DNA of 64,000 nucleotides, taken from the NCBI GenBank assembly GCA_015061845.1, contig SUVT01000002.1:4057-68056 (forward strand), written 5' to 3'. This DNA is from Lentisphaerota bacterium (GTDB lineage: Bacteria; Verrucomicrobiota; Lentisphaeria; Victivallales; UBA1829). This document shows, one piece after another, positions 8,332-36,299 of the stretch. Numbering within the stretch: position 1 is the first letter of the stretch; every line of letters starts with the position of its first letter. A program made the translations under genes and the position numbers. A model generated the notes under the pieces. That model was not told where the DNA came from and ran no database searches. It saw only the letters and a program-made list of their open reading frames with translations.

Positions 8332-9117
8332 ATGGAAGTAATCGTCAGACCCACAGCTAAAAGCGCAGAAGAACTGACAGCTAAGATCATCGCTGCCGAA
8401 CTCATCAAAAAGCCGAACATGACCCTCGGTCTTGCTACCGGCCGTACCATGGAAAGACTTTATGACCTCCTCGGTCAGAAATGCAAGAACGAAGGACTTG
8501 ACTTCTCCCTTTGCAAGACTTTCAACCTCGACGAATATGTCGGACTTGCTCCCGAAGATCCCAACTCCTATCGCTACTACATGAACAAGAACCTCTTTGA
8601 AAAGATCAATATCGATATGCGCAATACCCATGTCGAAAACGGCATCGCTGAAGATCTCGACGAAGAATGCGCACGTTATGAAGAAATGATCAAAGAAGCA
8701 GGCGGACTTGACCTCCAGCTCCTCGGTATCGGACGCAGCGGACATATCGGTTTCAACGAACCCCTCTCCCCCCTCACATCCCGCACCCGCATGGTTCCCC
8801 TGACAAAAGTCACCTACGAACAGAACAGCCCCCTCTTTGAAAATCCCGAAGATATGCCCATGCTCGCTATGACAATGGGTGTCGGTACCATTCTCGAAGC
8901 CAAGAAGCTCGTTATGCTCGTCACCGGTGCTGAAAAGGCTGATATCATTGCAAAAGCAATCGAAGGTCCTGTCACAAGCATGATCTCCGGTTCTGCTATC
9001 CAGTTCCACCCCGATTGCGTTGTCATCCTCGATGAAGAAGCAGCTGCTAAACTCGAAGGAAAAGAAGACTACGCTTTCGCAGTCAAGAACAGCCCCAAAT
9101 ACAAAGATTTCCTTTGA
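8332..9117 (+). CDS. nagB: glucosamine-6-phosphate deaminase
   Basis: 261 aa with GLATGRT and LLGIGRSGHIGFNEP motifs of the NagB family. Confidence 0.88.
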   Translation: MEVIVRPTAKSAEELTAKIIAAELIKKPNMTLGLATGRTMERLYDLLGQKCKNEGLDFSLCKTFNLDEYVGLAPEDPNSYRYYMNKNLFEKINIDMRNTHVENGIAEDLDEECARYEEMIKEAGGLDLQLLGIGRSGHIGFNEPLSPLTSRTRMVPLTKVTYEQNSPLFENPEDMPMLAMTMGVGTILEAKKLVMLVTGAEKADIIAKAIEGPVTSMISGSAIQFHPDCVVILDEEAAAKLEGKEDYAFAVKNSPKYKDFL

Positions 9118-9140
9118 TCTGAGCCTGTTCTCTGATAATA

Positions 9141-9177
9141 AAAATGCGGTCCCCATTCACGGAGACCGCATTTTTTT
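9141..9177. terminator. bidirectional rho-independent terminator between convergent nagB and the six-gene operon
   Basis: AAAAA-GCGGTCCCC-attcac-GGAGACCGC-ATTTTTTT: a 9-bp stem (one mismatch) flanked by an A-run and a T-run. Confidence 0.6.
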
Positions 9178-9554
9178 CACTCCTCCCAAATACACTGCTC
9201 CAACAGTGCTTTGACCTCCTCCGGCACAGTCTTCATGAACGCCACAAAGACCGGATCATCCTCTGCCAGATAGTTGGCAGCAAAGAACTGATCCAGATAC
9301 CCAGCGACCTCAAGCCGTGTCCTGTACCCCTCCCACTCTTCTCCCAGAGTGCGGATGATCTTCAAGGTGCTGTACTTCTTCGGCAGCTCAACAGGCTTCG
9401 GCTGATACGGCTCAAGCTCTTCCGGTGTCCGCAAGACAAAACCATTTTCAACCAGCCATTTTTCGTTTTTATCCACATTGAACATCCCTCTTGCCTTGTC
9501 ATTCTTCGGAGGATAAACGATCCTTCCGTCTTCGATTTTCGCCCAAATCTTCAT
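9177..9554 (-). CDS. hypothetical small acidic protein (gene 6 of orphan operon)
   Basis: 125-aa ORF with AAGGAGA RBS, 14 nt after the repeat-protein gene. No signal peptide and no recognisable motif. Confidence 0.6.
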   Translation of the reverse strand: MKIWAKIEDGRIVYPPKNDKARGMFNVDKNEKWLVENGFVLRTPEELEPYQPKPVELPKKYSTLKIIRTLGEEWEGYRTRLEVAGYLDQFFAANYLAEDDPVFVAFMKTVPEEVKALLEQCIWEE

Positions 9555-9568
9555 ATTGAAATTCTCCT

Positions 9569-10549
9569 TTATTCAGTTGTGTTTGTGCCTGTGAAAGCGG
9601 TATCTGCTCCGGTTACATTTGCCGGACACTTTGCGAGAAACGCTGACCTTGAACCTGTCACTTTAGAACAGCCATTGAACATATTAGCTATATTGGTCAG
9701 CTTCGTCCACCCCTCTGCCGGAGCATTCGCTACAAGCGTATCAAGATTGATTTCAGCGTTGGTACAGCCATTGAACATACTAGTTCCATTCGTCAACCCA
9801 TCCGGTAACTTTGTTAAAGGGAGTTGTGCGTTTGTGCATCCGCCAAACATACCTTCTGCATTCTTCAAACTGGACGGCAGGCTTGTCAATGGCAACCGTG
9901 CATTTGAACAACCAGCGAACATCCATTTTGCTTCAGAAAGTTTATTTCCAAGACTGATAAGGGGAAGTTCCGCATTTTTACATCCACTAAACATGTTGTA
10001 CCCATTCGTCAACCCATCCGGCAGCTTTGTCAAGGGAAGTTGTGCCATAGGGCAGGTATGAAACATACTACTTCCATTTGTCAACCTATCCGGCAGCTTT
10101 GTCAAGGGAAGTTCTGCATTTGAACAATAATGAAACATAAGTTGAGCATTTGTGATACTATCGGGCAAACGCGTGGATTTTAAAAGAGCATTGCTGCAGA
10201 CAGAAAACATCTGATCACCAATCGTCAAATCTCCCAGATTATCCAAACTGTCAGAACACAATTCAATCAGAGTGTTCCCTGTTGTATTAAAGTTTACCCG
10301 ATAACACTCCGTCTTAACTTTTACTGTATAAGTCCCAGCCTTTGCATAAGTATGGTTCAACGCTGTCCCACTTGTAACAGCATCTTTTTTCTGCCCATCT
10401 CCCCAATCAACAGAACAGTAACCTCCACTGTTCCAATAAGGAGTAAATCCATAAGTCATACCAATCGCCAAAATTCCCGGCTTTACAACAAGTTCAAAAT
10501 ACTTCTTTTCGTTCTTCCCCATCGGATTCAATCTGTATGGAATCGGCAT
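9569..10549 (-). CDS. PKD-like domain + BspA/DUF285-type leucine-rich-repeat protein (gene 5 of orphan operon)
   Basis: CSVDWGDGQKKDAVTSGTALNHTYAKAGTYTVKV matches the PKD signature. This is followed by eight 24-residue repeats carrying MFxxC (e.g. LPLTKLPDGLTNGYNMFSGCKNAE). No signal peptide. GGAGGTGA RBS. Confidence 0.7.
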   Translation of the reverse strand: MPIPYRLNPMGKNEKKYFELVVKPGILAIGMTYGFTPYWNSGGYCSVDWGDGQKKDAVTSGTALNHTYAKAGTYTVKVKTECYRVNFNTTGNTLIELCSDSLDNLGDLTIGDQMFSVCSNALLKSTRLPDSITNAQLMFHYCSNAELPLTKLPDRLTNGSSMFHTCPMAQLPLTKLPDGLTNGYNMFSGCKNAELPLISLGNKLSEAKWMFAGCSNARLPLTSLPSSLKNAEGMFGGCTNAQLPLTKLPDGLTNGTSMFNGCTNAEINLDTLVANAPAEGWTKLTNIANMFNGCSKVTGSRSAFLAKCPANVTGADTAFTGTNTTE

Positions 10550-10550
10550 A

Positions 10551-11399
10551 TCAACTCACCTCCAAGGTATAAGCGACATTCCCGATAACTTTTTCCCCAT
10601 CCCACCTGATGACGACAGCATAAAGAGTATTGGCAGTATCGAACGCCGGTTCTTCGATCCAAGTGACATCCGTCATCGTGAAACTGACCACCTCTCCCGG
10701 CATCGTCAGCCACAGCTCCATGGTCACACATTGATCATTTTTCAGCGCAGATTTATCAAATGTAATTATTTCACCATTTGAAAGAGTATGTTTTACAACA
10801 GTTTCATTTTTTAATCCGGTAACAGGATTTTCCGACTCTGCAATCCTCATGCAGGACAATGCGTTATCAAGCATTTCTTTTGTGACCGGAGAATCAATAT
10901 TTTCACCAGCAAGAAATTTCTTGACCCATGACATTGTTGCAATATCTTCAAGGACTTCAACAGGTTGATTGTTCGATGGATCATTGGAGTATCGGGCAAC
11001 CACTCTGAACTTCATCGAATAAACCAAACTTCCGTCAGAGTTGAACCCTCTGACTTCAAGCCATCCATGAGTGTCTCCATTTTCAACGGAAGCCAGGAAA
11101 TTTGTTGTTCTGGTTACAACTGGAAATGATATTCTGCCTTCTTTGATTCCCGATGAATCAATATCAGAATCTATTGTATGACAAAGCAGACTTTTTTCTT
11201 CCAAGCCATAAACGATGACATCCCAGCAAACAATTCCGGAAACAGTCTGGAGAAACTCCTCCGGACGATCTTTCATTTCCAATTTGAAATGTTCCAGTTT
11301 TCCATAACTGAGCACCAATTTTTCCGTCGTTGAAACAGGGGTTGAATCTTCTGCAGAAACGATCCGTTCCAGCGATTTCAATGAGTAATAAATATTCAT
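10551..11399 (-). CDS. hypothetical protein (gene 4 of orphan operon)
   Basis: 282-aa ORF. Its ATG overlaps the upstream stop (ATGA), and its stop lies 1 nt before the next ATG. No recognisable motif. Confidence 0.6.
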   Translation of the reverse strand: MNIYYSLKSLERIVSAEDSTPVSTTEKLVLSYGKLEHFKLEMKDRPEEFLQTVSGIVCWDVIVYGLEEKSLLCHTIDSDIDSSGIKEGRISFPVVTRTTNFLASVENGDTHGWLEVRGFNSDGSLVYSMKFRVVARYSNDPSNNQPVEVLEDIATMSWVKKFLAGENIDSPVTKEMLDNALSCMRIAESENPVTGLKNETVVKHTLSNGEIITFDKSALKNDQCVTMELWLTMPGEVVSFTMTDVTWIEEPAFDTANTLYAVVIRWDGEKVIGNVAYTLEVS

Positions 11400-12484
11400 A
11401 TTTCAGTTCCTTTCTTTTGTGTTCTCTTCAGTTCTTCCAAACGGTCCGGATATTCCGGATAAATAATTACAGCCGGTTCAGATACCCAGACATAATCAGG
11501 TTTATTATCTGACGGTTCAGCTCCTTCTTTGAATTCATATTCCCAGACAGAATCACCTGTACACCAGTCAGGAGATTCATAGATAACGGAATATCTGGCA
11601 CTCGCACTGTTCAACGGAGTTTTATAAAAGTCATAAAGTCCCCCTCCGTAACCGTCTCTGTTTGAATATGTTTTACCAATTATGATATACTTATAACGCA
11701 GCAGACTTTTTGAATGGATCTCAACACGGAAAGTCATCCGTACTGCATATAAAAAACTATTTATATCTATCCATCCAATCCGACCGTTGACAGATTTTCC
11801 GAATACGGTTGAAGAGTTTTCTTTTATCAAAGTCCCTTCTGGTGTGATCTCTTTCATTGCAAAGGTACAATAAATATCACATCGTTTGTAAAAATCCGGA
11901 ACATCCACATTTACGAATGGTGTTTCCGTATGAATGATTGACATGTGGTTATCAAGTATCGCATCAAACGTTTTTGCCATCTGATATTTCCCGTATGTCT
12001 CAACAGCATCACCGTATAAATTCACCGGTTTGATAAAATCATAAAACGATGAATCCAAATATGACATCAGATCGACTAATGAAGTCTTTCCATGCACACT
12101 TGGAAAACGGTTCCCCGCATTTTCCATTGTTTCCGGAGTGACAGTTTCTCCATTTTCCGGAAAGTCAAAATTGAAAATAATTCTGCGGTCACGCCAGAAT
12201 GAAAACCAAGTCAAAAAAGGAAGATACCCCAAATTCTTTATCTGACCCTGTTTCGGATATAAACTTTCTGCATATTCCAGAATATTTTTTCCCGTTTGAA
12301 AAAACTCCGGCATGAGCGGGAAAATACTACTGTATGCCAGCGAAATAATGGGTGTTCCCCAAAACAATTCTGTAGAACTGAATTCCGGATCATAAACCAA
12401 CCGCATATGGTCAAGTGTCCGTTGCCAGTAGGATTGGAAAATGATATCCTCCGGAACACATAATAGTTTATCAGCATCGTTCAT
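11396..12484 (-). CDS. hypothetical protein (gene 3 of orphan operon)
   Basis: 362-aa ORF from MNDADK. Its ATG shares one nt with the upstream TAA (TAATG). An alternative ATG lies 15 nt upstream at 12499. Confidence 0.6.
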   Translation of the reverse strand: MNDADKLLCVPEDIIFQSYWQRTLDHMRLVYDPEFSSTELFWGTPIISLAYSSIFPLMPEFFQTGKNILEYAESLYPKQGQIKNLGYLPFLTWFSFWRDRRIIFNFDFPENGETVTPETMENAGNRFPSVHGKTSLVDLMSYLDSSFYDFIKPVNLYGDAVETYGKYQMAKTFDAILDNHMSIIHTETPFVNVDVPDFYKRCDIYCTFAMKEITPEGTLIKENSSTVFGKSVNGRIGWIDINSFLYAVRMTFRVEIHSKSLLRYKYIIIGKTYSNRDGYGGGLYDFYKTPLNSASARYSVIYESPDWCTGDSVWEYEFKEGAEPSDNKPDYVWVSEPAVIIYPEYPDRLEELKRTQKKGTEI

Positions 12485-13044
12485 TATGCTCTCCACCATC
12501 TGTTATATTCCACGATATGCCCCTGCTGGATTTGAACAATTTTTGTTCCTTCGATCCGGGCAATGGGATAAATGGAAATATATGGATCACGGTAAGGATA
12601 CTCTTCTGTTTTAGGATTCAGATGATCCACAGCCGCCAGTTTCATTGCATCGGAACAACTCTTCCACGGATCGGGTACAAAGTCAAAAATATAACCGGAC
12701 ACACCGGAATTGCCCCAAATCACCCGGAGAACCAGAAGAGTATTCTCCTGTCCCTCAACAAATGTAACCCAGTTGCTGGAAATATGTGCTAAGATTTGCA
12801 TATCCGGCGCACAAATACTCCCGCAATATTGAGTATTTCCTCCCATAAATTCAGGCGGACAACTGATTTGCACTGCATCTTTGAAAATCCATTTTGCCAT
12901 GAAGGGGCCTTGATATCCATCAGAAGATCCTTCCGCAATAAAAAAGCTTTGTTTCTTTGCAGAGCTGCTGATCAATGAACGCGATACAGCATCCATTTTC
13001 CGGATGGCATTCACAGCGGAATCTGTCGCTTTGATAACTTTCAT
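12484..13044 (-). CDS. hypothetical protein (gene 2 of orphan operon)
   Basis: 186-aa ORF from MKVIKATDS, with GAGGTGGAAGA-ATG immediately after the upstream TAA. The listed longer start (13095) would overlap gene 1. Confidence 0.55.
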   Translation of the reverse strand: MKVIKATDSAVNAIRKMDAVSRSLISSSAKKQSFFIAEGSSDGYQGPFMAKWIFKDAVQISCPPEFMGGNTQYCGSICAPDMQILAHISSNWVTFVEGQENTLLVLRVIWGNSGVSGYIFDFVPDPWKSCSDAMKLAAVDHLNPKTEEYPYRDPYISIYPIARIEGTKIVQIQQGHIVEYNRWWRA

Positions 13045-13055
13045 TCTTCCACCTC

Positions 13056-14009
13056 TTACCACGGATTGCCTGACGGAAGAGAGAGAACAGACCAATCAGC
13101 ACTGCGTTTTTCCTGAAATGAAAGCTGCTGCTTATTCTGCTGAGCCCGCTGGGATTGTATCACATATCCGCCAGCATCAAGCCAGACAGGATCGTCGACC
13201 GGCATGATCGGAGTAGATTCTTTCCGGGAATTCAATAAACTCTCCATCGGCGCATAAGAGATCTTGCCGGTATCTTTTGAAACCCCATAGCATATCCGGC
13301 TGTAAGTACTTCCGTTCCAGCAGAAATATCCTCTGTTGGGAACTTGACGCATGAATCCGTGCGGATTGATCTCCAATTCGACATTCACCTGTATGACTGT
13401 CTCTTCATCAACTGTTACGCTTTCAGCGCAAAGACTTCGCAATAAACCGCAGCCCTCGTCGATTCCGATCCCGCAAACACGAATCGCTCTTTTATTGGTC
13501 GTATTGCACAACTCCAGAATCCAGCCCGGAGAAAAGGAGCGGATATAGTAAGAAAAACGGACTAACAAAGTTATTTCTGTGGTTTCCAGATTAAAAAATT
13601 CACCGGCTGAGGAACAGACAGGTTTTGCAGCGTTCCCCTTGGAATCCGTTTCATCATAAGAGTAAAGAAAAGGAACTTTAGTTTCAATTGGAAGAACCTT
13701 GAAATTAAATGGTTTGCCATAATCAACACCACCAACAGAAACCGTTCCGCTGCTCAAGGTCTCATAACTGCATTCAACAAGAACCTTGGACTTTTTTCCC
13801 GACCGTTCCGGCTTCAGCAAAATCTCATTGCAATACAATCCGGGAATCCCGGGGAAAGATTCTCCGATCACTGGAAAATCTTTTACCTTTGCAACTTGTG
13901 CAAGTCCTTCTCCGTCAGAGCAAAAATAAAGAAAGGTTCTCTTCCCTTTCTTTGATGTCCCGGAGAGAATAATCGAATGTTCAACTGTACCGCGATAATC
14001 AATACTCAT
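13056..14009 (-). CDS. hypothetical protein (gene 1 of orphan operon)
   Basis: 317-aa ORF with a strong AGGAGGTTACG-ATG RBS, 73 nt downstream of dxs. No signal peptide and no recognisable motif. Confidence 0.6.
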   Translation of the reverse strand: MSIDYRGTVEHSIILSGTSKKGKRTFLYFCSDGEGLAQVAKVKDFPVIGESFPGIPGLYCNEILLKPERSGKKSKVLVECSYETLSSGTVSVGGVDYGKPFNFKVLPIETKVPFLYSYDETDSKGNAAKPVCSSAGEFFNLETTEITLLVRFSYYIRSFSPGWILELCNTTNKRAIRVCGIGIDEGCGLLRSLCAESVTVDEETVIQVNVELEINPHGFMRQVPNRGYFCWNGSTYSRICYGVSKDTGKISYAPMESLLNSRKESTPIMPVDDPVWLDAGGYVIQSQRAQQNKQQLSFQEKRSADWSVLSLPSGNPW

Positions 14010-14082
14010 CGTAACCTCCTGATTTTTCGCCCGTTATTGTGTCAACCGGGGAATGAATCAGAGAAGCTCTCTTTGAGCAGGA

Positions 14083-15945
14083 TTATTTTTTCAGACAGGC
14101 AATGATTTTTTCTGTAATATCCTGAGGTGTAAGATAATATGCTTTCCGGAGTGCATCGGGTTTTCCGTGGGGAACAAAATCCTGACAGCTCCAGCCGAAA
14201 TGCAGGATTTCTTTATGAGGTTCATTGATCAGAAGAGAGTCAACCAAAGAAGCCAGACCGCCCTCTTTCTGGGAATCTTCCAGTGTCACAATAACCTTTT
14301 CTGATGCATCAAGTTTCAACTTTCCGCTGTCAAAAGGCTTTAAGGACCGAACATTCACAACAGAAGATGCAATTCCGTAACTTTCAAGCAGTTGCGCAAC
14401 TTTCAATCCCGTTTCACACTCTCTCCCGGCACACCAGATCGCAACATCTTTTCCGGATCGGAGTTCTACTGATTTTCCGGGAATAAAGGGAGTCCGTTTC
14501 TCCGTCAGATTTGTTGAATATCCCTTGGGATAACGAATCACAACAGGAGATTTTATATAGTGGGCATAAAAAAGCATATCCTGCAATTCTCCTTCATCTG
14601 CAGGAAGATATATCTGCAAATCAGGAATGGAAAGCAGAAAAGAAAGATCATAAATCCCGTGATGAGTCGGACCATCTTCTACAACGCCGGAACGGTCGAT
14701 CCCTATGATAACAGGCAATTTTTGCAGACAGATATCATGAAAAAGACAGTCCATCGCACGATGCAGAAATGTTGCGTAAATTGCAATCACCGGACGCAAA
14801 CCGCCGGCAGCAAGTCCGGAGGCAAAAACAAGAGCATGTTCTTCGGCGATCCCGACATCAAAAAAACGTTCCGGAAAACGCTTCTCAAATTCACAAAGCT
14901 TTGTACCGGAAGACATTGCAGCAGTTATTGCAACAACTTCCCGGTGCTTTTCTCCAAGACTTACCAAACTTTCCGCAAAAGAATCTGAAAATGTTTTTTC
15001 AGCACTTTTTGAAGTGAACTCTCCTGTTTCAGGATTGAATGGTCCGCACCCGTGAAACGCCTCCGCCCGCTCTTTCGCAAACTTGCAGCCATGACCTTTT
15101 TCCGTTACCACATGAACAACAATCGTTCGCCCCTTGATATCACGGATCTTTTCAAATTTATCTAGAAGCTGGGGAAGATCATGACCATTGATCGGTCCGA
15201 CATACTTCATTCCCAATTCTTCAAAGACTGCTCCGGACACAAAGAAACTCTTGGTGACTCGTTCCAGCTTGCGGATCATCTGAATCAAACGCCGTCCAAA
15301 CGGAACACCCCGCAAACTTACTTTCAACAACGTTTTCAGCTTGTTGTAACGCCGTCCCGTAATGACACGGGTCAGATATTTTGAGATTGCTCCGACGCTG
15401 CGGGATATCGACATTTTATTATCGTTGATCACCAGAATAAAGTTCTCGTTGACCTCCCGGATGTAGTTCAACGCTTCCAAAGCAATCCCGCATCCGAGAG
15501 AACCATCTCCGATCACTGCAACCACTGCAGCATCTTTTTTCCCGGTCAAAGCATTTGCTTTTGCCAGACCGATCGCCTCGGAAATCGCAACTCCCGCATG
15601 ACCGGTATAAAACTTATCCCGGGAAGATTCGTTCGGAGCAAGGAATCCGCTCACACCATCAAAACGGCGCAGAGTTGAAAAATCTTTATTCCTTGCATTC
15701 AGCAACTTGTGTACATAAGCCTGATGCCCCACATCCCAGAGAATAGAATCATCCTCCTTGCAAAACACCCGGTTCAAAGCAACCCCAAGCTCCACCGTTC
15801 CCAGATTTGGAGAAAGGTGTCCGCCATTGGCTGCCACCGTAGTAATGATTTTCTGCCGCAATTCTGAGCAAAGCTCTTCAAGCTCCTGCGGACTGAGAAA
15901 ACGCAAATCTTCAGGTGTTTTTATTTTTTCAAGCTGTGAACTCAT
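14083..15945 (-). CDS. dxs: 1-deoxy-D-xylulose-5-phosphate synthase
   Basis: 620 aa with DVGHQAYVHKLL, GHAGVAISEAIG and VIGDGSL TPP-binding motifs typical of DXS. Confidence 0.93.
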   Translation of the reverse strand: MSSQLEKIKTPEDLRFLSPQELEELCSELRQKIITTVAANGGHLSPNLGTVELGVALNRVFCKEDDSILWDVGHQAYVHKLLNARNKDFSTLRRFDGVSGFLAPNESSRDKFYTGHAGVAISEAIGLAKANALTGKKDAAVVAVIGDGSLGCGIALEALNYIREVNENFILVINDNKMSISRSVGAISKYLTRVITGRRYNKLKTLLKVSLRGVPFGRRLIQMIRKLERVTKSFFVSGAVFEELGMKYVGPINGHDLPQLLDKFEKIRDIKGRTIVVHVVTEKGHGCKFAKERAEAFHGCGPFNPETGEFTSKSAEKTFSDSFAESLVSLGEKHREVVAITAAMSSGTKLCEFEKRFPERFFDVGIAEEHALVFASGLAAGGLRPVIAIYATFLHRAMDCLFHDICLQKLPVIIGIDRSGVVEDGPTHHGIYDLSFLLSIPDLQIYLPADEGELQDMLFYAHYIKSPVVIRYPKGYSTNLTEKRTPFIPGKSVELRSGKDVAIWCAGRECETGLKVAQLLESYGIASSVVNVRSLKPFDSGKLKLDASEKVIVTLEDSQKEGGLASLVDSLLINEPHKEILHFGWSCQDFVPHGKPDALRKAYYLTPQDITEKIIACLKK

Positions 15946-16011: not shown

Positions 16012-17430
16012 TTAATCTTCAACTACATGCAAATCACGTTTCAGCTGTACAATCGTATGCTGCAATCTTGGATCTGTCTTACAATCAGTTTCCACCTGTT
16101 TGACAGCATGGATAACAGTTGTATGATTCCGGCCGCCGAACTCCTGCCCGATCTCTTTCAGGGGGAGATCCGTCAAATGACGGGCAAGGTACATTGCAAT
16201 CATACGCGGTTCCGCAATGTTTTTCGGCCGTTTGGAACCGGTGATATCGTGAACATGGATATTAAAATATTTCGCAACAACAGAGAGGATCCTATCGATA
16301 TCGACTCTGGTCGCATCTGCTTCAGAATCAAGAATATCGCAGAGCATACTTTCCGCCATATCCGTTGTGATCTCATCAGGGGATTTCAGACAGGCATTAC
16401 AGAATGTGATAATGCGCATCAAAGCTCCTTCCAAAGCTCTGATCTGGGATGTCACACGACGGGCAATGAAAACCAGAAGTTCCTGCGGGATCTTCGTTGT
16501 CTGATTTTCCTGTTTTGCCTTCAGAATCGCCAACCTGGTTTCATATCCCGGAGGTGTGATTTGTGTCATCGCGCCCTGCTGGAAACGGGATACCAGACGA
16601 TCTTCCAGACCTTTGATTTCAGACGGCTGTTTATCAGAAGTCAGGATGATCTGACCTCCTCTGGAATAAATCGCATTGAAAGTGTTGAAAAACTCTTCCT
16701 GAAGCTGGGTTTTGTTCGCAAGGTTGTGAACGTCGTCGATCAGAAGAAGATCAAGATTCCGGTAATAATCACGGAAGTCTGCATGAGAGTGATTCATACA
16801 TGCCTTCACATAATCATTCAGGAAATTTTCGCTGGGAATATAGCAGACTTTCGCCGCAGGATTGGATTTCTTCACCTGGTTCGCAACAGCATAAAGAAGG
16901 TGGGTTTTTCCAAGCCCCGTACCGCCGTAAATATACAGCGGATTCAACTCTCCGGGATGTTCCGCAGCTGATCTTGCACAGGAAAACGCATAACGGTTTG
17001 CCTCGCCGATCACAAAGTTTTCAAACGTAAACCGAACCCCAGGAATAAATGCCGGACGGGTTTCCTTTTCAGGAGCCTTCTGTTCGACTTTCACTTCCTT
17101 TACAGGTTCGACTGCCGGTGTTTCCTTTTTGACCGGAGCTGAATATCCCTCTTTGAAATTGACAGACAATGAATGACCGGCTGCACGCTGAAGTGCTTCT
17201 TCCAAATCGGACATGGCATTGGTCCGGATCATATCTGCAAAGAAATCGTCAGGCACGCCCAGCGTGATCGCCTCTGTTGTCAGTTCCAAAGGAACAACAC
17301 AGGCAAACCACTGTTGGTACATGGCTGTACTTTTCTCTCTCAGATACTCCGAAGCTGCACTCCAAAGCTGAGTACATTCCGCTGTCGTCTCTTCAAATGT
17401 TTTCATTTTTCCCTTCTTTTCTGTTGACAA
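16012..17430 (-). CDS. dnaA: chromosomal replication initiator DnaA
   Basis: 472 aa with Walker A GGTGLGKTHLL, Walker B LLLIDDVH, and a C-terminal DNA-binding domain (GGRNHTTVIHAVKQV). Confidence 0.95.
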   Translation of the reverse strand: MSTEKKGKMKTFEETTAECTQLWSAASEYLREKSTAMYQQWFACVVPLELTTEAITLGVPDDFFADMIRTNAMSDLEEALQRAAGHSLSVNFKEGYSAPVKKETPAVEPVKEVKVEQKAPEKETRPAFIPGVRFTFENFVIGEANRYAFSCARSAAEHPGELNPLYIYGGTGLGKTHLLYAVANQVKKSNPAAKVCYIPSENFLNDYVKACMNHSHADFRDYYRNLDLLLIDDVHNLANKTQLQEEFFNTFNAIYSRGGQIILTSDKQPSEIKGLEDRLVSRFQQGAMTQITPPGYETRLAILKAKQENQTTKIPQELLVFIARRVTSQIRALEGALMRIITFCNACLKSPDEITTDMAESMLCDILDSEADATRVDIDRILSVVAKYFNIHVHDITGSKRPKNIAEPRMIAMYLARHLTDLPLKEIGQEFGGRNHTTVIHAVKQVETDCKTDPRLQHTIVQLKRDLHVVED

Positions 17431-18182
17431 AAGTTATGATCTCCGATCTCTTCTGTCAACTGACTTCAACCCACCGGACAGAGGCAAAACGTCCCCATCT
17501 CTTTTTCGCATGAAGAAGAGCTGAAAACCCCTTGTTCTGTTATTTCGTTCCGGGTTATTAACATTATTCTGCGTTTGAACCGGATTCCTCCCGGCGGCAG
17601 AATATCAAATCGATATTTTTTCTTCGAGACAGATCTTTTTTCCCAATAACTGTAAACCTTTGATCTTACGGCTTATAACAGCTATTTTGAACTCAAAATC
17701 TGTTTTAATCTTTGTTATTTCTGTTTTGCGATTGGATCTTGAGGAAACGATCCGGATATCCAAACAGTACAACAAAGTTTTTTTCATGCAGGTGAGGCAA
17801 ATCTTATACCTGTCTAACTATTTTCAACAAAGTTATGAACAAGTTATTGACATTGCTCTTTTCTACCTTCGCATGACATCTATAATTTGCACCATTTAGC
17901 AAAATTTGCAAGTCAACTTTGAAAAATTTTTTACAATCTTTTTTTCATTTTGCATTTGCTTATTTCAAAAGATGTGCTATATGCGCGAAAAGACCTGCAG
18001 CACTTCCGGAAATATACTCACCTTTCTTTGTTTTTCAAGCAGTATCATAAACTTTTTTTCAACTCCGGAAAAATCTCGCATACGCGCGTGTTTTTTTTAT
18101 AGCGGGGTTTGAAAATACTCCAAAGAGGTGATATATTGCCGGGTTAAAAGAAACAACATACACCGTTAACAGGAGAAAAAAA
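17431..18182. other. 752-bp AT-rich non-coding region upstream of dnaA: candidate oriC / dnaA promoter region
   Basis: No credible ORF in this region. Three TTAT-NN-ACA 9-mers (TTATTAACA 17555-17563, TTATGAACA 17833-17841, TTATTGACA 17844-17852) each match TTATCCACA at 7 of 9 positions. Long A/T runs are present. No perfect DnaA box was found. Confidence 0.35.
18109..18137 (+). promoter_or_regulatory. candidate sigma70-type promoter of the ROK kinase gene (TTGAAA-17-TATATT)
   Basis: TTGAAA 18109-18114, 17-nt spacer, TATATT 18132-18137, about 45 nt before the ATG. Confidence 0.4.
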
Positions 18183-27744: not shown

Positions 27745-28551
27745 TTACCGTTCTGTTGTGGTTCCGCAGAACCATCTTAAAGTCTCTTCAAGCCACACAG
27801 CATGATCCCGGAATTGCGGATCGGAAAGCCAGCCGTTCTGCAGACAGACACATCCGTCAAGAAACGCATATTTTCCGCGCATGGCAGAAAGAACTTTCAT
27901 CCACTGCAGCTTCCAGAGTTCAAAGTCAATGGGGTGCGCCGCAGATGAAAATTCGCCGTAATTCTGAATATAGATGCCGTGAAGCAGTTTCTTTTTATAA
28001 ATCTCTTTGAACCGATGGATCAGCGAACCGAACTCTGCTTTCCAGAAGTGTTCCGTGGAAACCCACCGCCAGAGAATGATCCCGTCGATCAAATCCAGAT
28101 ACGGGGTCAGATCCAGATGGTTCAAATCGGAGTAGATCACCACATAAATTTCCAATTCCGGATTGGCAGATTTCAGATTATCCCGGATCCCTTTCACCAG
28201 TTCCGGTGTCGTGGGATGTCCGGAGAGCTGAAGAAAATCATCCAGCACGATCCCTTTGATATTCGGATATTTCAAGGACATTTCACTGAGAACTTTTGCG
28301 CCTTCCAGAGCATTTTTTTCGCCGTGGGGCAATCCGCAAAGAACCTGTTTAGAATCTTTCACAAATGCCAGATTTTCTTCCAACCGGTCCAATGAGTGCA
28401 TGCTGTTCATGAAAACAGTATTGTTCATCCCGAAATATTCAGCCGCACTTTCCAGACTGCAAAAACTTCTGTAACTTCCGGTGAATGGCAGGTTCGTTCC
28501 CGCCTGCTCCATGGTGTAACCCCACATCCAAAACTTGTCGCGCATACTCAT
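27745..28551 (-). CDS. hypothetical cytoplasmic protein (TIM-barrel-like?), function unknown
   Basis: 268-aa ORF with no signal peptide. Its ATG overlaps the upstream stop (ATGA at 28548-28551). No family recognised. Confidence 0.55.
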   Translation of the reverse strand: MSMRDKFWMWGYTMEQAGTNLPFTGSYRSFCSLESAAEYFGMNNTVFMNSMHSLDRLEENLAFVKDSKQVLCGLPHGEKNALEGAKVLSEMSLKYPNIKGIVLDDFLQLSGHPTTPELVKGIRDNLKSANPELEIYVVIYSDLNHLDLTPYLDLIDGIILWRWVSTEHFWKAEFGSLIHRFKEIYKKKLLHGIYIQNYGEFSSAAHPIDFELWKLQWMKVLSAMRGKYAFLDGCVCLQNGWLSDPQFRDHAVWLEETLRWFCGTTTER

Positions 28552-31500
28552 TTCAGATTTCTCCTTATTTTTATGGAATCGTTTCCTGGTTCTATTGTAT
28601 CAACAGCCTTTTTCCAATATATTTTTCCATCTTTCACAACAGGCATTTCCATACCGGGTACAGCCGGATAAACCAAGGTCAGGAACTCCACATTTTCCCC
28701 TTTCTGAGAGAAAATCCCCTGGGGCAAAGCAACTTGGAGCTGTCCGTGAAAACGGGTATTGAAAATCTTGCGGGTAACTTGAATCTCCGGTTTTCCGATC
28801 ATGGGGATCAGATGCAGTTCCGTCTGTTCCTGTTTGATCCATTTCCATCCTTTCCCGATCCGTTTGGCATCTGCGACTTCCAGAAGCAAATCTGTTTTTG
28901 CATCGGCTCCGAGATAAATATCACTGCGTTCAGAAAGAGCGATCGCATAAATCTTTGCCTGAGACTGGATCGCGATTTTATGCTCCCCTGCCCCCAGCTC
29001 CACAAAAAACGGTTTGTTCTTCATCCGGAAATGCCGCCACTGCCAGGTGTCCGGACGGGAATAGGGCTGCAAATAAGTCACAGCATATTTCTTACCGTCG
29101 ATCTCCAACGAAACAGGCGCACCGTTCCGGGCGTAAAGGTGAAAATACCACTTTCCTTTCTTCGGAACCTTTACGGTCCATTCTGCTTTGTCTGCTTTCT
29201 CTGAACTCTGATAACAACCATCAAAAAGAGCATCACGAATTGATAGATGATTTTTGGTAAAATTAAAAATTCCCATCCCCTGATCCGCAGTAAAAAGCTG
29301 TTCCACTTTCACATTCCGTCCGGCTTCCACTTTATCATAAACCAGATAATAAGCCGGGATCCCATCCGCAGCTTTCATCATTGTGACGATCCGTTTTCCA
29401 GCCTTGATCCCCGCCCGTCCGCAAGGAATCCCGGAATATCCCGGCGCACCGAAAAAGGAAACTGCAAAGGCTTCCGTAAAATCAACTGCAACAGAAACAG
29501 TATTCCCATCTCTGACAGGCTTTTTCAGCATGGGCTTCGACAATGCGCTTCTGTTGCGCCCTTCCCCGTCAATAATGATCTGACTGTGATATTCACTCAT
29601 GGGAACAGCCTGTCCGGGTTCGGTCAGGAACCGCAAACCGCGGGAAGTCAGAGAGATCGCACCGTATGTCAAATGGGCGTGACCGGAACCTTGTGGAGCC
29701 GTGATCGCCATAACGGAATCTTCCATTTTATCCCCAGTCCGCAGAACAGCATACCCCTGATGCGGGAAATAACCTCGATCCGGCAATCCGCCTTCCCATT
29801 TCTGAGCCTTTCCTTCCGAGGGCTTCCACCAGAGCAAACCAAGAACATCAGTCAACTCCGATGATTTCCGGGGAACACTGTTCCACAATTTATGCAGCGT
29901 CTGATCTTCCGGATAAAGCTCCAGCAATCCCGTCGGCAATCTCAACGCAAGATAATCCGCATCATCAATCGCCGGGGTTTCCGTTCCGCCCTTCATGGAA
30001 GAAACCGCCATCCAGCCGGAGATTTTTTTCAAATTGGAATCCAGCAGAGCCCGAGCCTGATTGTGTTTGTTCAAAGTCACAAGAAACGGAGTCAATTCTC
30101 CAACCGGATGATGGAAATAGGAAAAACCTTCTTCCGCATCACCGTATTCGCCGATCCATTTGTTCAAAGCAAGCAGAGAAAGACGCTCTGCCACAAGGCT
30201 GTAATCGTCAGAGATCCCTTCTTCCCCCCTCATGGCAAATCCCATGGGACCGAGAGATGCAGCAAAATAAACCGCATAATTTCCGCCGCCGGGAGAAGTA
30301 CCGTATATCCCGCAGTGGTGGTTCAAACAGGTATCTTTCTTGGCATCCATGGAAATTTTCAAAAGCACATTCAATGCCTTCAAATCTTTCTTCGGAATCA
30401 GATCATAAACCCAGTCATACGCACAAGCCATGCGGTAATCGCTATGCACCACACCGTGTGCATAACGGGAGATCTCCGCCGCTTTCAGCATGATCTCAAC
30501 TGCACGTTTTCCGTACTTTTCTTCTCCGGTGATCTGACGGGCAAACGCAAGAGACATCATGGCATTCACCCACAATTCTCTGTAATAAAGCTCTGCGAAA
30601 GCCGGAATGGCATAACGTTTCCGCATGGGATCTGTTGCAATCTTTTTCAGAGATGCCTCCACTTTCGGATCTGTCAGATATCCATCGCACTTTTTCAGGA
30701 ACTTGTTCCAATATGTTTTGTAAGGTTCTTTCGCAAAACGGGCACGGATCGCAGGCAGATCTTTTGCTGTGAACAGAATCCGGGGCCGCTCCATTTTCAC
30801 AGGGGGGATCACGATCGGCATGGAAAGGGTCGGTTTGTCTCCGATTCTGCCTTCCATTGTCAGTTTTTCATCAGCGATCACCTGAGTATCCGGTTTCCAC
30901 TGCAATAAAATACCGGAAACAGCAGGACGTACCCAACGGGGGAAATAATCCTGTGCAAACGGTGTATTGGTTACATTAAAATGTTTATTTGTCTTCAAAT
31001 CATAAACCCAGATATCCGCATTTCCGGAACGCTGAGAGGAATAAGCGAGCTTCGTTCCATCCAGGGACCAGCTGACATGTCCGCTCCACACGGGAGTCGA
31101 AAAATGTTTTTTCAAATCCGTTCCATCGGGACGGACACTCATCACCTCGGTGGAACCATCTGCATTAACAACGGTAAATGCGATTCTGTTGTTGCGCCAT
31201 CCCCAGTCCGGCTCATGAATATCTCCGGACAGAGAAAGGATCTTTTTCTGAGAAACGCCCTGTTCATCAGAAATATAAAGATCGAACTTTCCATCCCGGT
31301 TGCTGGTGAAAGAAATGTTTTTGCCATCAGGCGACCATGACGGGGAGAGATGAGTGGCTCTGTTCCAGGAAATATTTCTCATTCCTGTGCCATCATATTT
31401 CATAATAAAAATTTCGCAGTTGTTGTTCAGATCTGTCACAAAAGCGATTTTCTGTCCATCGGGGGACCAGCGGGGCTGATACTTTTCCCGGATGAACCGG

Positions 31501-31826
31501 GTAAGATTATAAATAGACTTTCCGCCGGGCTGGATCACAAAAAAATTGTAGGTGTTGGTAAAAATAAGATTACCCTGAAAAGAGACATCAGGGTAATCAT
31601 ACTGATTGGGCCCGAAACCACGGTATCCGGGCCAGAAATTTTCGGCTTTGAAGTTAGGAGAAATGACTTGCTTCCTCTGCGAGCCATCTTCATTGATCTG
31701 TTCGATAATCCTGACCGGACGCCCGGAAGAATCCCGGGCATCAGTCCCATACACAAGACTTTGTGCTGAACAGAGCGGAATCAATCCGGTCAGTGCCAGC
31801 AGCGCAGAGCAAACTTTTTTATTCAT
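28548..31826 (-). CDS. secreted TolB-type (PD40/WD40-like) beta-propeller fused to a heparinase II/III-like domain (possible polysaccharide lyase)
   Basis: Signal peptide MNKKVCSALLALTGLIPLCSA. PD40 repeats: PRWSPDGQKIAFV, PSWSPDGKNISFTSNRDG, VSWSLDGTKLAYSSQRSGNADIWV. These are followed by an alginate-lyase/DUF4962-like toroid (RPRILFTAKDLPAIRARF...DYRMACAYDWVYD) and a heparinase II/III-like C-terminal region (GSGHAHLTYGAISLTSRG). Start ATG 31826 overlaps the upstream stop (ATGA). Confidence 0.7.
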   Translation of the reverse strand: MNKKVCSALLALTGLIPLCSAQSLVYGTDARDSSGRPVRIIEQINEDGSQRKQVISPNFKAENFWPGYRGFGPNQYDYPDVSFQGNLIFTNTYNFFVIQPGGKSIYNLTRFIREKYQPRWSPDGQKIAFVTDLNNNCEIFIMKYDGTGMRNISWNRATHLSPSWSPDGKNISFTSNRDGKFDLYISDEQGVSQKKILSLSGDIHEPDWGWRNNRIAFTVVNADGSTEVMSVRPDGTDLKKHFSTPVWSGHVSWSLDGTKLAYSSQRSGNADIWVYDLKTNKHFNVTNTPFAQDYFPRWVRPAVSGILLQWKPDTQVIADEKLTMEGRIGDKPTLSMPIVIPPVKMERPRILFTAKDLPAIRARFAKEPYKTYWNKFLKKCDGYLTDPKVEASLKKIATDPMRKRYAIPAFAELYYRELWVNAMMSLAFARQITGEEKYGKRAVEIMLKAAEISRYAHGVVHSDYRMACAYDWVYDLIPKKDLKALNVLLKISMDAKKDTCLNHHCGIYGTSPGGGNYAVYFAASLGPMGFAMRGEEGISDDYSLVAERLSLLALNKWIGEYGDAEEGFSYFHHPVGELTPFLVTLNKHNQARALLDSNLKKISGWMAVSSMKGGTETPAIDDADYLALRLPTGLLELYPEDQTLHKLWNSVPRKSSELTDVLGLLWWKPSEGKAQKWEGGLPDRGYFPHQGYAVLRTGDKMEDSVMAITAPQGSGHAHLTYGAISLTSRGLRFLTEPGQAVPMSEYHSQIIIDGEGRNRSALSKPMLKKPVRDGNTVSVAVDFTEAFAVSFFGAPGYSGIPCGRAGIKAGKRIVTMMKAADGIPAYYLVYDKVEAGRNVKVEQLFTADQGMGIFNFTKNHLSIRDALFDGCYQSSEKADKAEWTVKVPKKGKWYFHLYARNGAPVSLEIDGKKYAVTYLQPYSRPDTWQWRHFRMKNKPFFVELGAGEHKIAIQSQAKIYAIALSERSDIYLGADAKTDLLLEVADAKRIGKGWKWIKQEQTELHLIPMIGKPEIQVTRKIFNTRFHGQLQVALPQGIFSQKGENVEFLTLVYPAVPGMEMPVVKDGKIYWKKAVDTIEPGNDSIKIRRNLK

Positions 31827-34408
31827 TTTCCTGTATTCCAATAAAATTCTTCTGTGAAACGGGTCTCGATATCCTTATGCCACTTTCCGGGATCATTGGG
31901 TTCTTCCGGCATAGCGGTAAAGATAACATATTTTCCTTCCTTACGGAACTCAACCGATTTTCCGTTACAATACACCGCTTTTGCCTTCGGTGCAAATGCT
32001 TTTACAGAAATTTTTCGGGAATATGCGTTTGATCTGCGCTCCAAACGCAAATCCATTGTCAAAGTTTCACCGTCACAGACGACCCAGGACTGGATCGCAA
32101 CACGGGGATAAGTGATCATCTGTCTGTCACCTTGCGCCTCTTTCGCTTCAAAAACAACTTTCGTATGAAGCTTCAAGTCACCGCCGCCCGCAATGAAATA
32201 CTGCAGCTCATCCGGCAATGTTCCCGGAATCTTCCCAACTGCACTCTTCGGTACACGCATCATCTTCAACTGCGGCTGCAATGGTGCTGCAACAGACTTC
32301 GGAGCGGTTCCGACAGCAATGTAATCAACAGCATTTTTCCATTCCAGTGAATGACTGAAACCATACCAGTTGCCAATGCTCTTCCGGATTGGCTGTACCG
32401 CATCAGGAAGGATCACTGCCAGAAAATCACCGGTCTTGCCTTCTGCAATCACCGTCCGCACATGCTGAAACTCTTTGCCGCATTTCACATCCGCAACTTT
32501 CAAAGACACATTCTCCGGCAGAGGATACCAGACCGTTGTCTTCACAGGGGTCGCCGTGAATCCGACACTGTTTTCAGCCGGAACACCAAAGACCGGACGC
32601 TTGTTTCCGGCATAGATCCACGCACCTTTCAGCGTTTGTGCAGCATTCAGCTCCACAATATTTTCTCCGGCTTTCAGCGGAACTTTCTTCGCAATGCAGT
32701 TCCATGTCAAACGGTACGGCAACGGTGTGCTGAACCAGAATTTTCCAACTTCTTTTCCATTCACTTTCGTGAAAAGCTGACTTTTCCCCGCCCCCAGCAT
32801 GTACAAGTCATAAGTTCCAGCACTGCTGACTTTCAACTTGAGACTCTTCTTTTTGAAATCAACAGAAGCTCCAGCACCAACACTGATTTCTGCGGTATCT
32901 TTTGCTGTTTTGATGTTGTTGAACGGCTCCTGCTGAAGCCGGAACTCATAAGTCGCATTCGGTGTCAGTGAACGGATGGAATCGGTAACGATCACATATC
33001 CCGGAACCTGATTTTTTGCATCCGGCGGCATAACAGCAAAAGTCCGTTCTGCCTTGCTGACTTCCGGTTTCTCGATCATGCGGCTGCTGTAACCCACTTT
33101 CCGGTTCCACGCATCGAACGCATCGACCGTATATAGCACCGCAAACTTCCCGATGACAAGACCATTGACCAGCCCTGCCCCACCGTGTTCGCTTGGGGCT
33201 TTGCTGTTGATCGTAACGATATTATGCAGAAGTCCGCTCTTGTGTCCATAGCCCGGATCTGTTGTCCGCATGACACCGCCGTAATGCAGCACGAACGATC
33301 CCACATCCGAATGGGAATGCCCCCGGGAAACGATAGCTTCCGAAGCAAAATGCAACGCCTTTTCGCTCCAGTCGGAGCGGTACAGCAGTAAATTCATTTC
33401 CGGAAAGAAACGGCTCAATGCAAACTTCTCCGGAGTAACTTTTTCCGGTGCTTTGTGATAGATGATCCCGGAAATCGGATCCGGCGCCGGCTCCTGTTCC
33501 GCATTCGCCCAGATAAGAAGCTGATCTATCGCTTTGGATTCCGGAACCAGCCGCTTGATCAAACGCAAAACATACTCTTCCGGATCCTGAATATTACAAT
33601 CTTCCATAGGAATGAAACGCAAAGGCAGCATAGGAGCGGTTTCCAACAGAAGCCACTCCGGTAATTTCGGAAAATTGGAGTCTTTCACCATGGAATATCC
33701 CTTCCGTTCCAGCATGAGTATGGCACTTCCGTTGATCACCATGGGATAATTGAAATATGCCCCGTGTTCCGTAACAGCTCCCCCCGGAACAATGGCATAC
33801 TTCAACTGGGCCTTCATTGCAAGTGCTGCCTTGTCCAATCCGGCTTTATCAAACTCCGGATGACCGCTCAGCACAGCACGATAGCGGATGGAATGGGGCA
33901 TATACATAAAATACCCCCAGTTCCCGAAAATCGAAAACGCCGGATGACGGTTCATTTTCGGATTCGTTTTCAACTCTTTCAGAATCAGATCTTTCAGATA
34001 TTTCTGATTCGACGCACTCAATCCGGCATACGCCCAGTCTAAAATATAAGGAACATGATGTCCCGTTTTGATCAGGTCGATTTTCCTGTTCCGGGCATCT
34101 GTCACCAGCCGTTCCACAGCATTGAGATATTTCATATCCCCGCCCAACTGCCATGCAAGAGCCAATTCACTCAACGCATCCAGTTTGGCATCCGAAAACT
34201 GTGATTTCACGATCTTCGATGGAACAGATTTCATTTGAAGATGCTTATTGCAGCGGGCAATCAGCTGTTTATATACCTTCCCCGGAATCCCTCCGGCTTT
34301 GATTTTTGCCTGTAACGCAGGAACATCCTCTTTGGAAAACAGCAGATGCGGATGCTCCGCTGCCGAAAGTCCGGCAGCGAAAAACAGAAAGAGCAGAAAA
34401 TATCTCAT
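31823..34408 (-). CDS. secreted heparinase II/III-like protein (possible polysaccharide lyase)
   Basis: Signal peptide MRYFLLFLFFAAGLSAAEHP, N-terminal HPHLLFSKEDVPALQAKI toroid-type region, and SRGHSHSDVGSFVLHYGG (heparinase II/III signature). Start ATG 34408 overlaps the upstream stop (ATGA). Confidence 0.7.
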   Translation of the reverse strand: MRYFLLFLFFAAGLSAAEHPHLLFSKEDVPALQAKIKAGGIPGKVYKQLIARCNKHLQMKSVPSKIVKSQFSDAKLDALSELALAWQLGGDMKYLNAVERLVTDARNRKIDLIKTGHHVPYILDWAYAGLSASNQKYLKDLILKELKTNPKMNRHPAFSIFGNWGYFMYMPHSIRYRAVLSGHPEFDKAGLDKAALAMKAQLKYAIVPGGAVTEHGAYFNYPMVINGSAILMLERKGYSMVKDSNFPKLPEWLLLETAPMLPLRFIPMEDCNIQDPEEYVLRLIKRLVPESKAIDQLLIWANAEQEPAPDPISGIIYHKAPEKVTPEKFALSRFFPEMNLLLYRSDWSEKALHFASEAIVSRGHSHSDVGSFVLHYGGVMRTTDPGYGHKSGLLHNIVTINSKAPSEHGGAGLVNGLVIGKFAVLYTVDAFDAWNRKVGYSSRMIEKPEVSKAERTFAVMPPDAKNQVPGYVIVTDSIRSLTPNATYEFRLQQEPFNNIKTAKDTAEISVGAGASVDFKKKSLKLKVSSAGTYDLYMLGAGKSQLFTKVNGKEVGKFWFSTPLPYRLTWNCIAKKVPLKAGENIVELNAAQTLKGAWIYAGNKRPVFGVPAENSVGFTATPVKTTVWYPLPENVSLKVADVKCGKEFQHVRTVIAEGKTGDFLAVILPDAVQPIRKSIGNWYGFSHSLEWKNAVDYIAVGTAPKSVAAPLQPQLKMMRVPKSAVGKIPGTLPDELQYFIAGGGDLKLHTKVVFEAKEAQGDRQMITYPRVAIQSWVVCDGETLTMDLRLERRSNAYSRKISVKAFAPKAKAVYCNGKSVEFRKEGKYVIFTAMPEEPNDPGKWHKDIETRFTEEFYWNTGK

Positions 34409-36201: not shown

Positions 36202-36299
36202 TTTTTCCTCCTGTATCTGATTTTTATGATAAACCGATTTATCATTTAATATAACACACCATTTTTCTTTTTCAAGCATGGTGTATTAAATTGTAGAAA

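Follow-up and report, generated by a model that had tools for sequence, protein, structure and literature searches.

The Rac and e14 elements of Escherichia coli are prophage remnants that keep tail-fiber genes (stf/tfa). Tailocins, among them the R- and F-type pyocins, derive from phage tail genes that the host has domesticated and that evolve fastest in their receptor-binding parts; their loci encode a tube, a tape measure, a baseplate, a lysis cassette and, where applicable, a sheath. In siphoviruses such as SPP1, TP901-1 and lambda, the tail-tip module follows the order tape-measure protein (TMP), Dit, Tal, receptor-binding proteins or fibers, and chaperone. Here we analyze a cluster of six genes, g1 to g6, located on the minus strand between dxs and nagB in a window of 64,000 nucleotides (nt) of contig SUVT01000002.1, and compare it with these systems. 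Gene order and similarity in related loci suggest that the cluster is probably the leftover of a phage tail-tip or host-recognition (adsorption) module, kept in ruminant-gut Lentisphaeria under purifying selection. Retained phage tail genes are a known phenomenon, and five of the six protein families are new to the reference libraries. An earlier note on this window had presented the cluster as a candidate for something undescribed, which holds for the protein families and not for the retention of tail or fiber genes under selection: such genes are reported to be enriched in incomplete or degraded prophages, and their selective retention has been described (PMC7744054).

The six genes are the following.

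13056-14009, minus strand: g1, 317 amino acids (aa), predicted all-beta, the most conserved member of the cluster
12484-13044, minus strand: g2, 186 aa from ATG, or 203 aa from an upstream TTG
11396-12484, minus strand: g3, 362 aa, or 367 aa from an upstream ATG
10551-11399, minus strand: g4, 282 aa
9569-10549, minus strand: g5, 326 aa
9177-9554, minus strand: g6, 125 aa, acidic (pI 5.0)

Contigs or loci carrying relatives of the cluster are designated by L-numbers (L011, L014, L018 and so on), and the link to phages comes from L014, L021 and L041. L014 carries g1-like, g2-like and g3-like genes in the chromosomal order; the g1-like protein (401 aa) is collinear with g1 (E = 4e-11), the C-terminal 167 residues of the g2-like protein (359 aa) are 57% identical to g2, and the g3 homologue (P0009) is 47% identical. 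The same contig encodes a 1,126-aa TMP (PHROG 1e-32, Pfam PhageMin_Tail), a head-tail adaptor, an ERCC4 nuclease and a sigma-like regulator, and a 322-aa protein with a glycine-rich, fiber-like C-terminus is encoded next to the g1-like gene. In L021 the order is a 1,048-aa TMP, four small opposite-strand genes including one of the helix-turn-helix (HTH) type, a 356-aa g1-like gene and a 198-aa g2-like gene, and the g1-like proteins of L021 and L014 are 24% identical over their full length (E = 8e-15). The module lies within about 1.6 kb of the 3′ end of the TMP gene in both contigs. L041 shows phage-type g2 and g3 followed by a homologue of the N-terminus of the 322-aa protein of L014 (55% identity, E = 1e-19). 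The gene orders of L041 and L014 indicate that the core of the phage lineage is tied to a different fiber-like protein, in the slot occupied by g4 on the chromosome.

These arrangements resemble the siphovirus tail tip in that the phage copies stand beside the TMP gene, a conserved proximal part is joined to variable distal binders, a fiber-like protein comes after the core, the last gene is small and acidic, and the products lack secretion signals. We propose that g1-g2-g3 would be a conserved core whose genes move together in related phages, with g4 (fiber-like), g5 (a PKD plus leucine-rich repeat (LRR) binder) and g6 (small, acidic) as the swappable distal part. Within it, g1 would act as the conserved hub, g2 and g3 as intermediate parts, g4 and g5 as binders and g6 as an accessory, and g3 to g5 may be the fast-evolving parts that contact the ligand. 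Of the three identities offered in the earlier note, a domesticated phage receptor-binding or baseplate cassette is the favored one, on account of the core beside the TMP gene, the phage matches of g5 and, weakly, g4 and the solitary chromosomal copy in its housekeeping context. Nothing was found in support of a second identity, cargo of a non-Sec export route.

The direction of transfer can be read from g1. Identity of the phage g1 proteins is only 24-29%, whether they are compared with one another or with their chromosomal counterparts; the chromosomal g1 orthologues are 52-88% identical, and the phage g2 C-domain and g3 fall within the range of chromosomal diversity. The phages would thus be the older and more diverse pool, which argues for transfer from phage to chromosome, and the AT shift of g1-g5 relative to the host points the same way.

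Exchange may also have continued. A 537-nt stretch of L021 (6469-7005), which spans the g2 C-domain and runs into the first part of g3, shares 96% nucleotide identity with the chromosomal locus L018. Its sharp, in-frame junction coincides exactly with the g2 domain boundary, and the identity upstream is at background level. The g2 architecture of L021 recurs in the independently diverged proteins P0054 and P0052, which indicates a real lineage. Temperate phages acquire DNA of defective prophages by relaxed homologous recombination (De Paepe et al. 2014, PMC3945230), and a segment with such a domain-boundary junction is the expected product of this process; unlike the published case, the event between L021 and L018 is deduced from metagenomic contigs only, with no recombinase identified. 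The mosaic suggests ongoing exchange between phage and chromosome.

Several observations weigh against a tail-tip origin. By sequence, the core proteins, chromosomal and phage-borne alike, match no Dit, Tal, baseplate or fiber family in Pfam, PHROGs or the PDB, and the good structural model of g3 matches no known tail-protein fold (Foldseek, PDB and BFVD). No relatives of g1, g2, g3, g4 or g6 were present in IMG/VR, and none in the plasmid collection; tblastn against INPHARED with the chromosomal and phage-borne proteins returned matches of the g5 repeats and otherwise none. The phage-type contigs number only three, all of them incomplete metagenomic assemblies, and the 96% mosaic could be an assembly chimera. 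In addition, the core is not simply co-linear with the TMP gene: it is convergent in L014, and in L021 it is set off by the opposite-strand HTH cassette, with a divergent promoter region upstream. The locus differs from the siphovirus tail tip in that no match to Dit, Tal or known receptor-binding proteins was obtained by sequence or fold, that the arrangement in L014 and L021 is not co-linear, and that the chromosomal copy is without a tail tube or TMP as an attachment point.

Because of the non-co-linear arrangement, the core could be an accessory (moron-like) cassette rather than a structural one. As a full explanation, this would make g1-g3, with or without g4-g6, a new non-structural multi-protein system of phages and hosts that serves, for example, anti-phage defense, superinfection exclusion or counter-defense. 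Temperate phages would carry it as a moron close to where the tail operon ends, and the Lentisphaeria clade would retain it on the chromosome to its own advantage. We regard this main rival as unlikely. The module of L021 is divergent from the HTH-repressor-like cassette, and that of L014 forms one unit with the sigma-like regulator and the nuclease, convergent to the tail operon, but no other tail-tip candidates are visible beside the TMP gene in either contig, and fiber-like proteins follow or adjoin the module. Fast evolution, a narrow distribution and variable gene content recall defense islands, and the cluster has its own conserved upstream box; nevertheless, the six proteins have no match in PADLOC, at E up to 1, and no enzymatic or nucleotide-binding motif. 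The absence of a tail-family match for the core would fit an accessory cassette, whereas g4 and g5 do match tail-fiber-type or phage families.

For g1-g3 and g6, with their phage-borne versions and divergent orthologues included, no family was matched in Pfam, PHROGs, NCBIfam or PADLOC; sequence-profile searches of the PDB with the alignments of g1, g2, g3, g4 and g6 gave chance-level matches only, and Foldseek with the weak g1 model returned nothing significant. Twelve IMG/VR loci related to the L021 TMP contained no homologue of g1-g6 with the family HMMs at E up to 10, and the L014 TMP has no IMG/VR relative. Scans of JGI metagenomes yielded no relatives from a collection that is evidently without the known JGI contigs.

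The AlphaFold2 (AF2) model of g1 is poor (pLDDT 52) and all-beta; its best-predicted 90 N-terminal residues gave non-significant local Foldseek matches to chains of tail-terminator or tube fold (for example 9l0e_N, probability 0.95, E = 0.18). The folds characteristic of a tail tip are a tail-tube-like N-domain in Dit and a gp27-like hub in Tal. In g2, a short segment at the N-terminus precedes a C-terminal domain of about 145 aa that is strongly conserved. The identity of this domain to its phage counterparts in L014 and L021, where the N-termini are different or longer, is 57-64%. For g3, the AF2 model (pLDDT 80, pTM 0.83) shows a helical N-domain (residues ~1-180) and a beta-sandwich C-domain (~182-343). 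The full-length fold has no match in the PDB or BFVD (TM <=0.2), with partial matches to jelly-roll, TNF-like lectin and carbohydrate-binding module (CBM) folds only. A regular-expression match to PD-(D/E)xK in g3 was rejected, as it does not fall at conserved positions.

Conservation of g4 is high in the last 65 residues, and the N-terminal two-thirds vary. Six of eight g4 orthologues gave weak matches to the far C-terminal end of the tail-fiber family PHROG 3904 (best E = 0.028), and the L025 orthologue matches phrog_3838 (1e-5) and a virion structural family (0.007). g4 is thus a candidate fiber-like subunit. Homology of g4 to the fiber-like protein of L014 was not significant. In L013, g4 is split at 10360-11189 into open reading frames (ORFs) of 112 and 169 aa, either a frameshifted allele or an assembly error.

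Only g5 scored in Pfam among the cluster proteins: PKD reached 26.1 bits against a cut-off of 23.5, and LRR_5 28.7 bits against 27.7; the L025 orthologue also matches DUF285 (2.5e-11). It is composed of a PKD domain, eight 24-residue LRR repeats of BspA/DUF285 type (MFxxC) and a conserved C-terminal cap, so that the Pfam result and the repeat count bear out the domain assignment made earlier. The orthologues range from 326 to 543 aa through gain and loss of repeats, with the PKD end and the cap kept. g5 matches PHROG 22899 (9e-12) and PHROG 9915 (2e-6), the PHROG 9915 profile has 1,813 positions, of which the L025 orthologue matches the C-terminal end at 6e-31, and the tblastn matches of the g5 repeats in INPHARED lie in phage genomes. 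In L011, a run of N (X in the translation) falls in the repeat array of g5 at ~12900-13000, and the protein is 25 residues longer than the otherwise identical copy of L012. This run indicates that the LRR array is unstable in assembly, and repeat counts from metagenome-assembled genomes (MAGs) need care.

The architecture of g5 raises the question of a host origin, in which the host would have invented a cell-surface or adhesion complex, with g5 as a BspA-like adhesin exported by a non-classical route, and phages would have captured g1-g3 later. PKD and BspA/DUF285 repeats are typical of surface adhesins, but the strongest matches of g5 are to phage families, and none of the proteins has a signal peptide, lipobox, transmembrane (TM) segment or sorting signal. 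Variation in repeat number is likewise common in surface proteins; however, g5 and g6 are dispensable, and g1 is far more diverse in phages than on chromosomes, arguing for movement from phage to host. We consider a host origin very improbable.

The C-terminal 65 residues of g6 are almost invariant. No match at E <=0.01 was obtained in Pfam, PHROGs, NCBIfam or the PDB, the chaperone families (Caudo_TAP, DUF4376 and the PHROG chaperones) included. The suggestion that g6 occupies the place of a tail-fiber chaperone is therefore left without homology to any chaperone family, and only its position and size fit.

The families are very small. Among 5.8 billion proteins, g3 formed 13 clusters, g1 19 and g2 23, and an exhaustive HMMER profile search of 1.84 billion representatives found 15 relatives of g3, all at E <=1e-10, with no twilight zone. 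Two of 185,579 species genomes carried g1, both Lentisphaeria MAGs, from roe-deer caecum and sheep colon. All chromosomal relatives found belong to ruminant-gut Lentisphaeria, with dnaA identity of 81-97%. In every chromosomal context recovered (10 distinct), the cluster stands directly after dnaA-dxs, or directly after dnaA in L015, and L025 has the lowest DnaA identity (81%) with the position kept. The upstream neighborhood (MreC, ROK, dnaA) is conserved among the chromosomal loci, and the downstream neighbor differs, being nagB-uxaC-FtsK, phosphatidylserine decarboxylase or unrelated sugar genes.

The 10-kb flanks of all chromosomal loci consist of housekeeping genes (PBP2, MreC, ROK, dnaA and dxs on one side; nagB, uxaC, FtsK and a RodZ-like gene on the other). 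We found no tRNA in the window and no att-like repeat around the cluster, and no phage genes among the other large ORFs of the window. Neither an integrase, terminase, portal, capsid or lysis gene nor an att site or tRNA stands beside the cluster, and neither the window nor the 10 kb around the cluster in any relative contained a tailocin component (tube, tape measure, sheath, baseplate, lysis cassette). The cluster is not a prophage or a known defense system, nor, within the window and these flanks, a tailocin. It shares with tailocins the keeping of phage tail genes by the host and the fastest evolution in the receptor-binding parts, and it differs from them in the absence of all these components. 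The earlier statement that this is not an ordinary prophage is confirmed by the flanks. Its companion concern, that the cluster might be simply the end of a prophage, applies only in part: homologues do occur in phages, but the chromosomal copies are not prophage ends. What was found is the pattern of a domesticated remnant, with homologues in phages, one syntenic locus and purifying selection.

Most loci have the six-gene form. In the closest relative, L028, four genes are present and g5-g6 are deleted, with the last codons of g6 and the terminator left; L022 has three genes and lacks g4-g6. The distal genes g4-g6 are dispensable. The split g4 of L013 is the sole disrupted cluster gene among the complete six-gene loci examined.

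The operon has the following signals.

14015-14020, minus strand: AGGAGG ribosome-binding site (RBS) of g1, by direct reading; AGGAGG or AGGAGA in all orthologous loci
14040-14047, minus strand: GGTTGACA box, with TTGACA starting 36 nt 5′ of the g1 ATG
9140-9175, either strand: bidirectional intrinsic terminator between the stops of g6 and the convergent nagB, common to both

The distance from the dxs stop to the g1 ATG is 73 nt. The junctions are 11 nt (g1/g2), TAATG (g2/g3), ATGA (g3/g4), 1 nt (g4/g5) and 14 nt (g5/g6), and the same six products were found in 23 independent metagenome contigs with separate gene calls. The terminator is a hairpin in which a 15-bp stem, its arms 93% complementary, closes a loop of 6 nt, bordered by A- and T-runs; its free energy is -27.4 kcal/mol (z = -5.9 against shuffled sequences), and it persists in L028 despite the loss of g5-g6. 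The ORFs, junctions, AGGAGG site and shared terminator reported in the earlier note are thus confirmed by direct reading and by independent gene calls, and the six genes form one coupled operon of orphan proteins. Plus-strand ORFs across 9144-14009 (for example 9144-10061, 305 aa) are shadow ORFs of the minus-strand genes. None of the six products has a TM helix, signal peptide, lipobox, P-loop or sorting signal; their maximum 19-residue hydropathy is <=1.33, compared with 2.44 for the FtsK control, so that the reported lack of signal peptides, TM helices and P-loops is borne out by both hydropathy and motif checks. The translational coupling suggests that the products assemble together in the cytoplasm.

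Upstream of the operon, the GGTTGACA box is invariant in 9 of 9 diverged chromosomal loci, and the remaining spacer is not conserved. The box reads as a conserved promoter (-35-type) or operator element, and its invariance indicates that the cassette has its own, selected transcription signal. GTTGACA occurs upstream of only 2 of the 48 genes of the window, g1 and dnaA; the dnaA copies form an inverted pair at 17423-17430 and 17454-17460 that fits a TTGACA-17-TAACTT promoter. In L014, a perfect palindrome TTGTCAAC/GTTGACAA (TTGTCAACGTTGACAA, 1126-1139) lies between the g1-like gene and the divergent fiber-like gene, and single boxes (9206-9212 and 14349-14355) lie 33-36 nt 5′ of the TMP gene and of the gene for a 429-aa protein. 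The GTTGACA box may therefore be a signal common to the host dnaA gene, the cassette and the phage. Its interpretation as a DnaA box was rejected, since canonical and variant boxes were not enriched and did not cluster near dnaA. The 429-aa protein of L014 (13027-14316, minus strand) shows weak, heptosyltransferase-like similarity to glycosyltransferase family 9 and to the N-domain of TibC, and its gene heads the head-tail block, an unusual place for such an enzyme. Inside dnaA, at 16861-16929 on the plus strand, the sole Rfam match was to AsdA, an antisense RNA of dnaA mRNA (25.3 bits, E = 0.099); it was rejected as probably due to chance, being below the gathering score of 52.

All six genes are under purifying selection, which marks them as real genes and not chance ORFs. 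Over four pairwise comparisons, dN/dS of the cluster genes was 0.10-0.35. Against L028 (dS ~0.7), it was 0.10 for g1, 0.16 for g2, 0.25 for g3 and 0.15 for g4, compared with 0.02 for dnaA and 0.06 for dxs; the three more distant comparisons gave 0.09-0.35, and the value for g1 among its orthologues is about 0.10. Positive selection in g3-g4 was rejected, as no 40-codon window exceeded a dN/dS of 0.58. Protein identity to L028 was 88% for g1, 74% for g2, 71% for g3 and 76% for g4. Identity to L011 was 94% for dnaA, 81% for dxs, 79% for g1, 70% for g2, 52-56% for g3-g5, 94% for g6 and 99% for nagB, and g3-g5 are the fastest-evolving genes of the cluster. The gradient of constraint along the operon reads as one typical of adsorption modules.

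In the comparisons with L011 and L028, dS drops sharply at the g5/g6 boundary (8332-9554 region): it is 0.17-0.25 for g6 and nagB and 0.59 for uxaC, compared with 0.7-1.7 from dnaA through g5 in the same genome pairs. This drop points either to a breakpoint of recombination close to where the cassette ends or to recent exchange of a segment on the nagB side.

Composition partly separates the cluster from the rest of the window. g1-g5 are AT-shifted, with 42.7% GC compared with 47.0 +/- 2.6% for 41 other genes, and g3 is the lowest gene of the window (-3.2 SD); g6 lies at +1.2 SD and, unlike g1-g5, has host-typical or higher GC and GC3. Hand counts of GC that had hinted at a foreign origin were reproduced (41% in the cluster and 46% in uxaA), and the hint itself is supported modestly for g1-g5 but not for g6.

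The loss of distal genes in L028 and L022 and the AT-shifted composition could also be explained by a cryptic remnant, that is, the slowly decaying end of an old prophage that is neutral and has no function for the cell, and tail-fiber genes are the class that lingers in degraded prophages (PMC7744054). Slow decay is, however, difficult to reconcile with six intact genes under purifying selection at saturated synonymous divergence, among which g1 is nearly as constrained as dxs. Moreover, the coupled junctions, RBS, box and terminator are conserved down to 81% dnaA identity, and no pseudogene or frameshift appears in the complete six-gene loci examined, except for the split g4 of L013. We judge a neutral remnant to be a doubtful explanation, markedly less credible than retention under selection.

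Compared with described prophage remnants, the cassette is similar in that it has tail or host-recognition genes without those for head, packaging, lysis or integration, is maintained by selection and can recombine with infecting relatives. It is unlike strain-specific remnants, because it is fixed at one locus across a clade of genus or family level, and it further differs in being a complete coupled operon with a conserved upstream box and in that PHROGs, Pfam, IMG/VR and INPHARED lack the families of all its proteins but g5.

Returning to the favored reading of a retained adsorption module, a phage module would have become fixed immediately downstream of dnaA(-dxs) in the ancestor of the clade and then been inherited vertically, and the cassette would have been kept without capsid, packaging, tail-tube, lysis or integration genes. 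The most economical idea is that the cell may keep it through interaction with related phages. It could serve as a recombination partner for phage tail genes, in the manner of the L021/L018 mosaic (PMC3945230), or it could supply tail-tip subunits that become part of the tails of infecting phages or poison them. A bolder version is that the cluster is an exapted, constitutively expressed host system of a new type, a tail-tip complex under a box shared with dnaA that acts on infecting relatives of the ancestral phage; we offer this tentatively and think it rather unlikely. Such a system might work by co-assembly into tails and their poisoning or retargeting (assembly-interference immunity), or as a standing recombination donor for host range. 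Either an interference or a donor role would explain the fixation beside dnaA, the purifying selection, the fast distal subunits and the mosaic.

The analysis gives a provisional assignment by genomic context to five orphan protein families. It also offers a first view of tail-region genes in phages of uncultured gut Lentisphaeria, a group with almost no described phages. As an example of the long-term retention of a presumed phage host-recognition module, the cassette is unusually clean: it stands at a single locus next to dnaA, is conserved throughout the clade and shows graded constraint from one end of the operon to the other. Should the module act on related phages, through exchange or interference, it would provide a testable example for the preferential retention of tail and fiber genes, a question raised in PMC7744054; if it is only a structural remnant, the finding is ordinary.

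Elsewhere in the window, another uncharacterized block of large genes at 28548-37061 on the minus strand, unrelated to the cluster, encodes a 1,097-aa PD40-repeat protein, two proteins of 881 and 624 aa without a Pfam match, and a 253-aa protein whose N-terminus has a methylation motif like that of type IV pilins.

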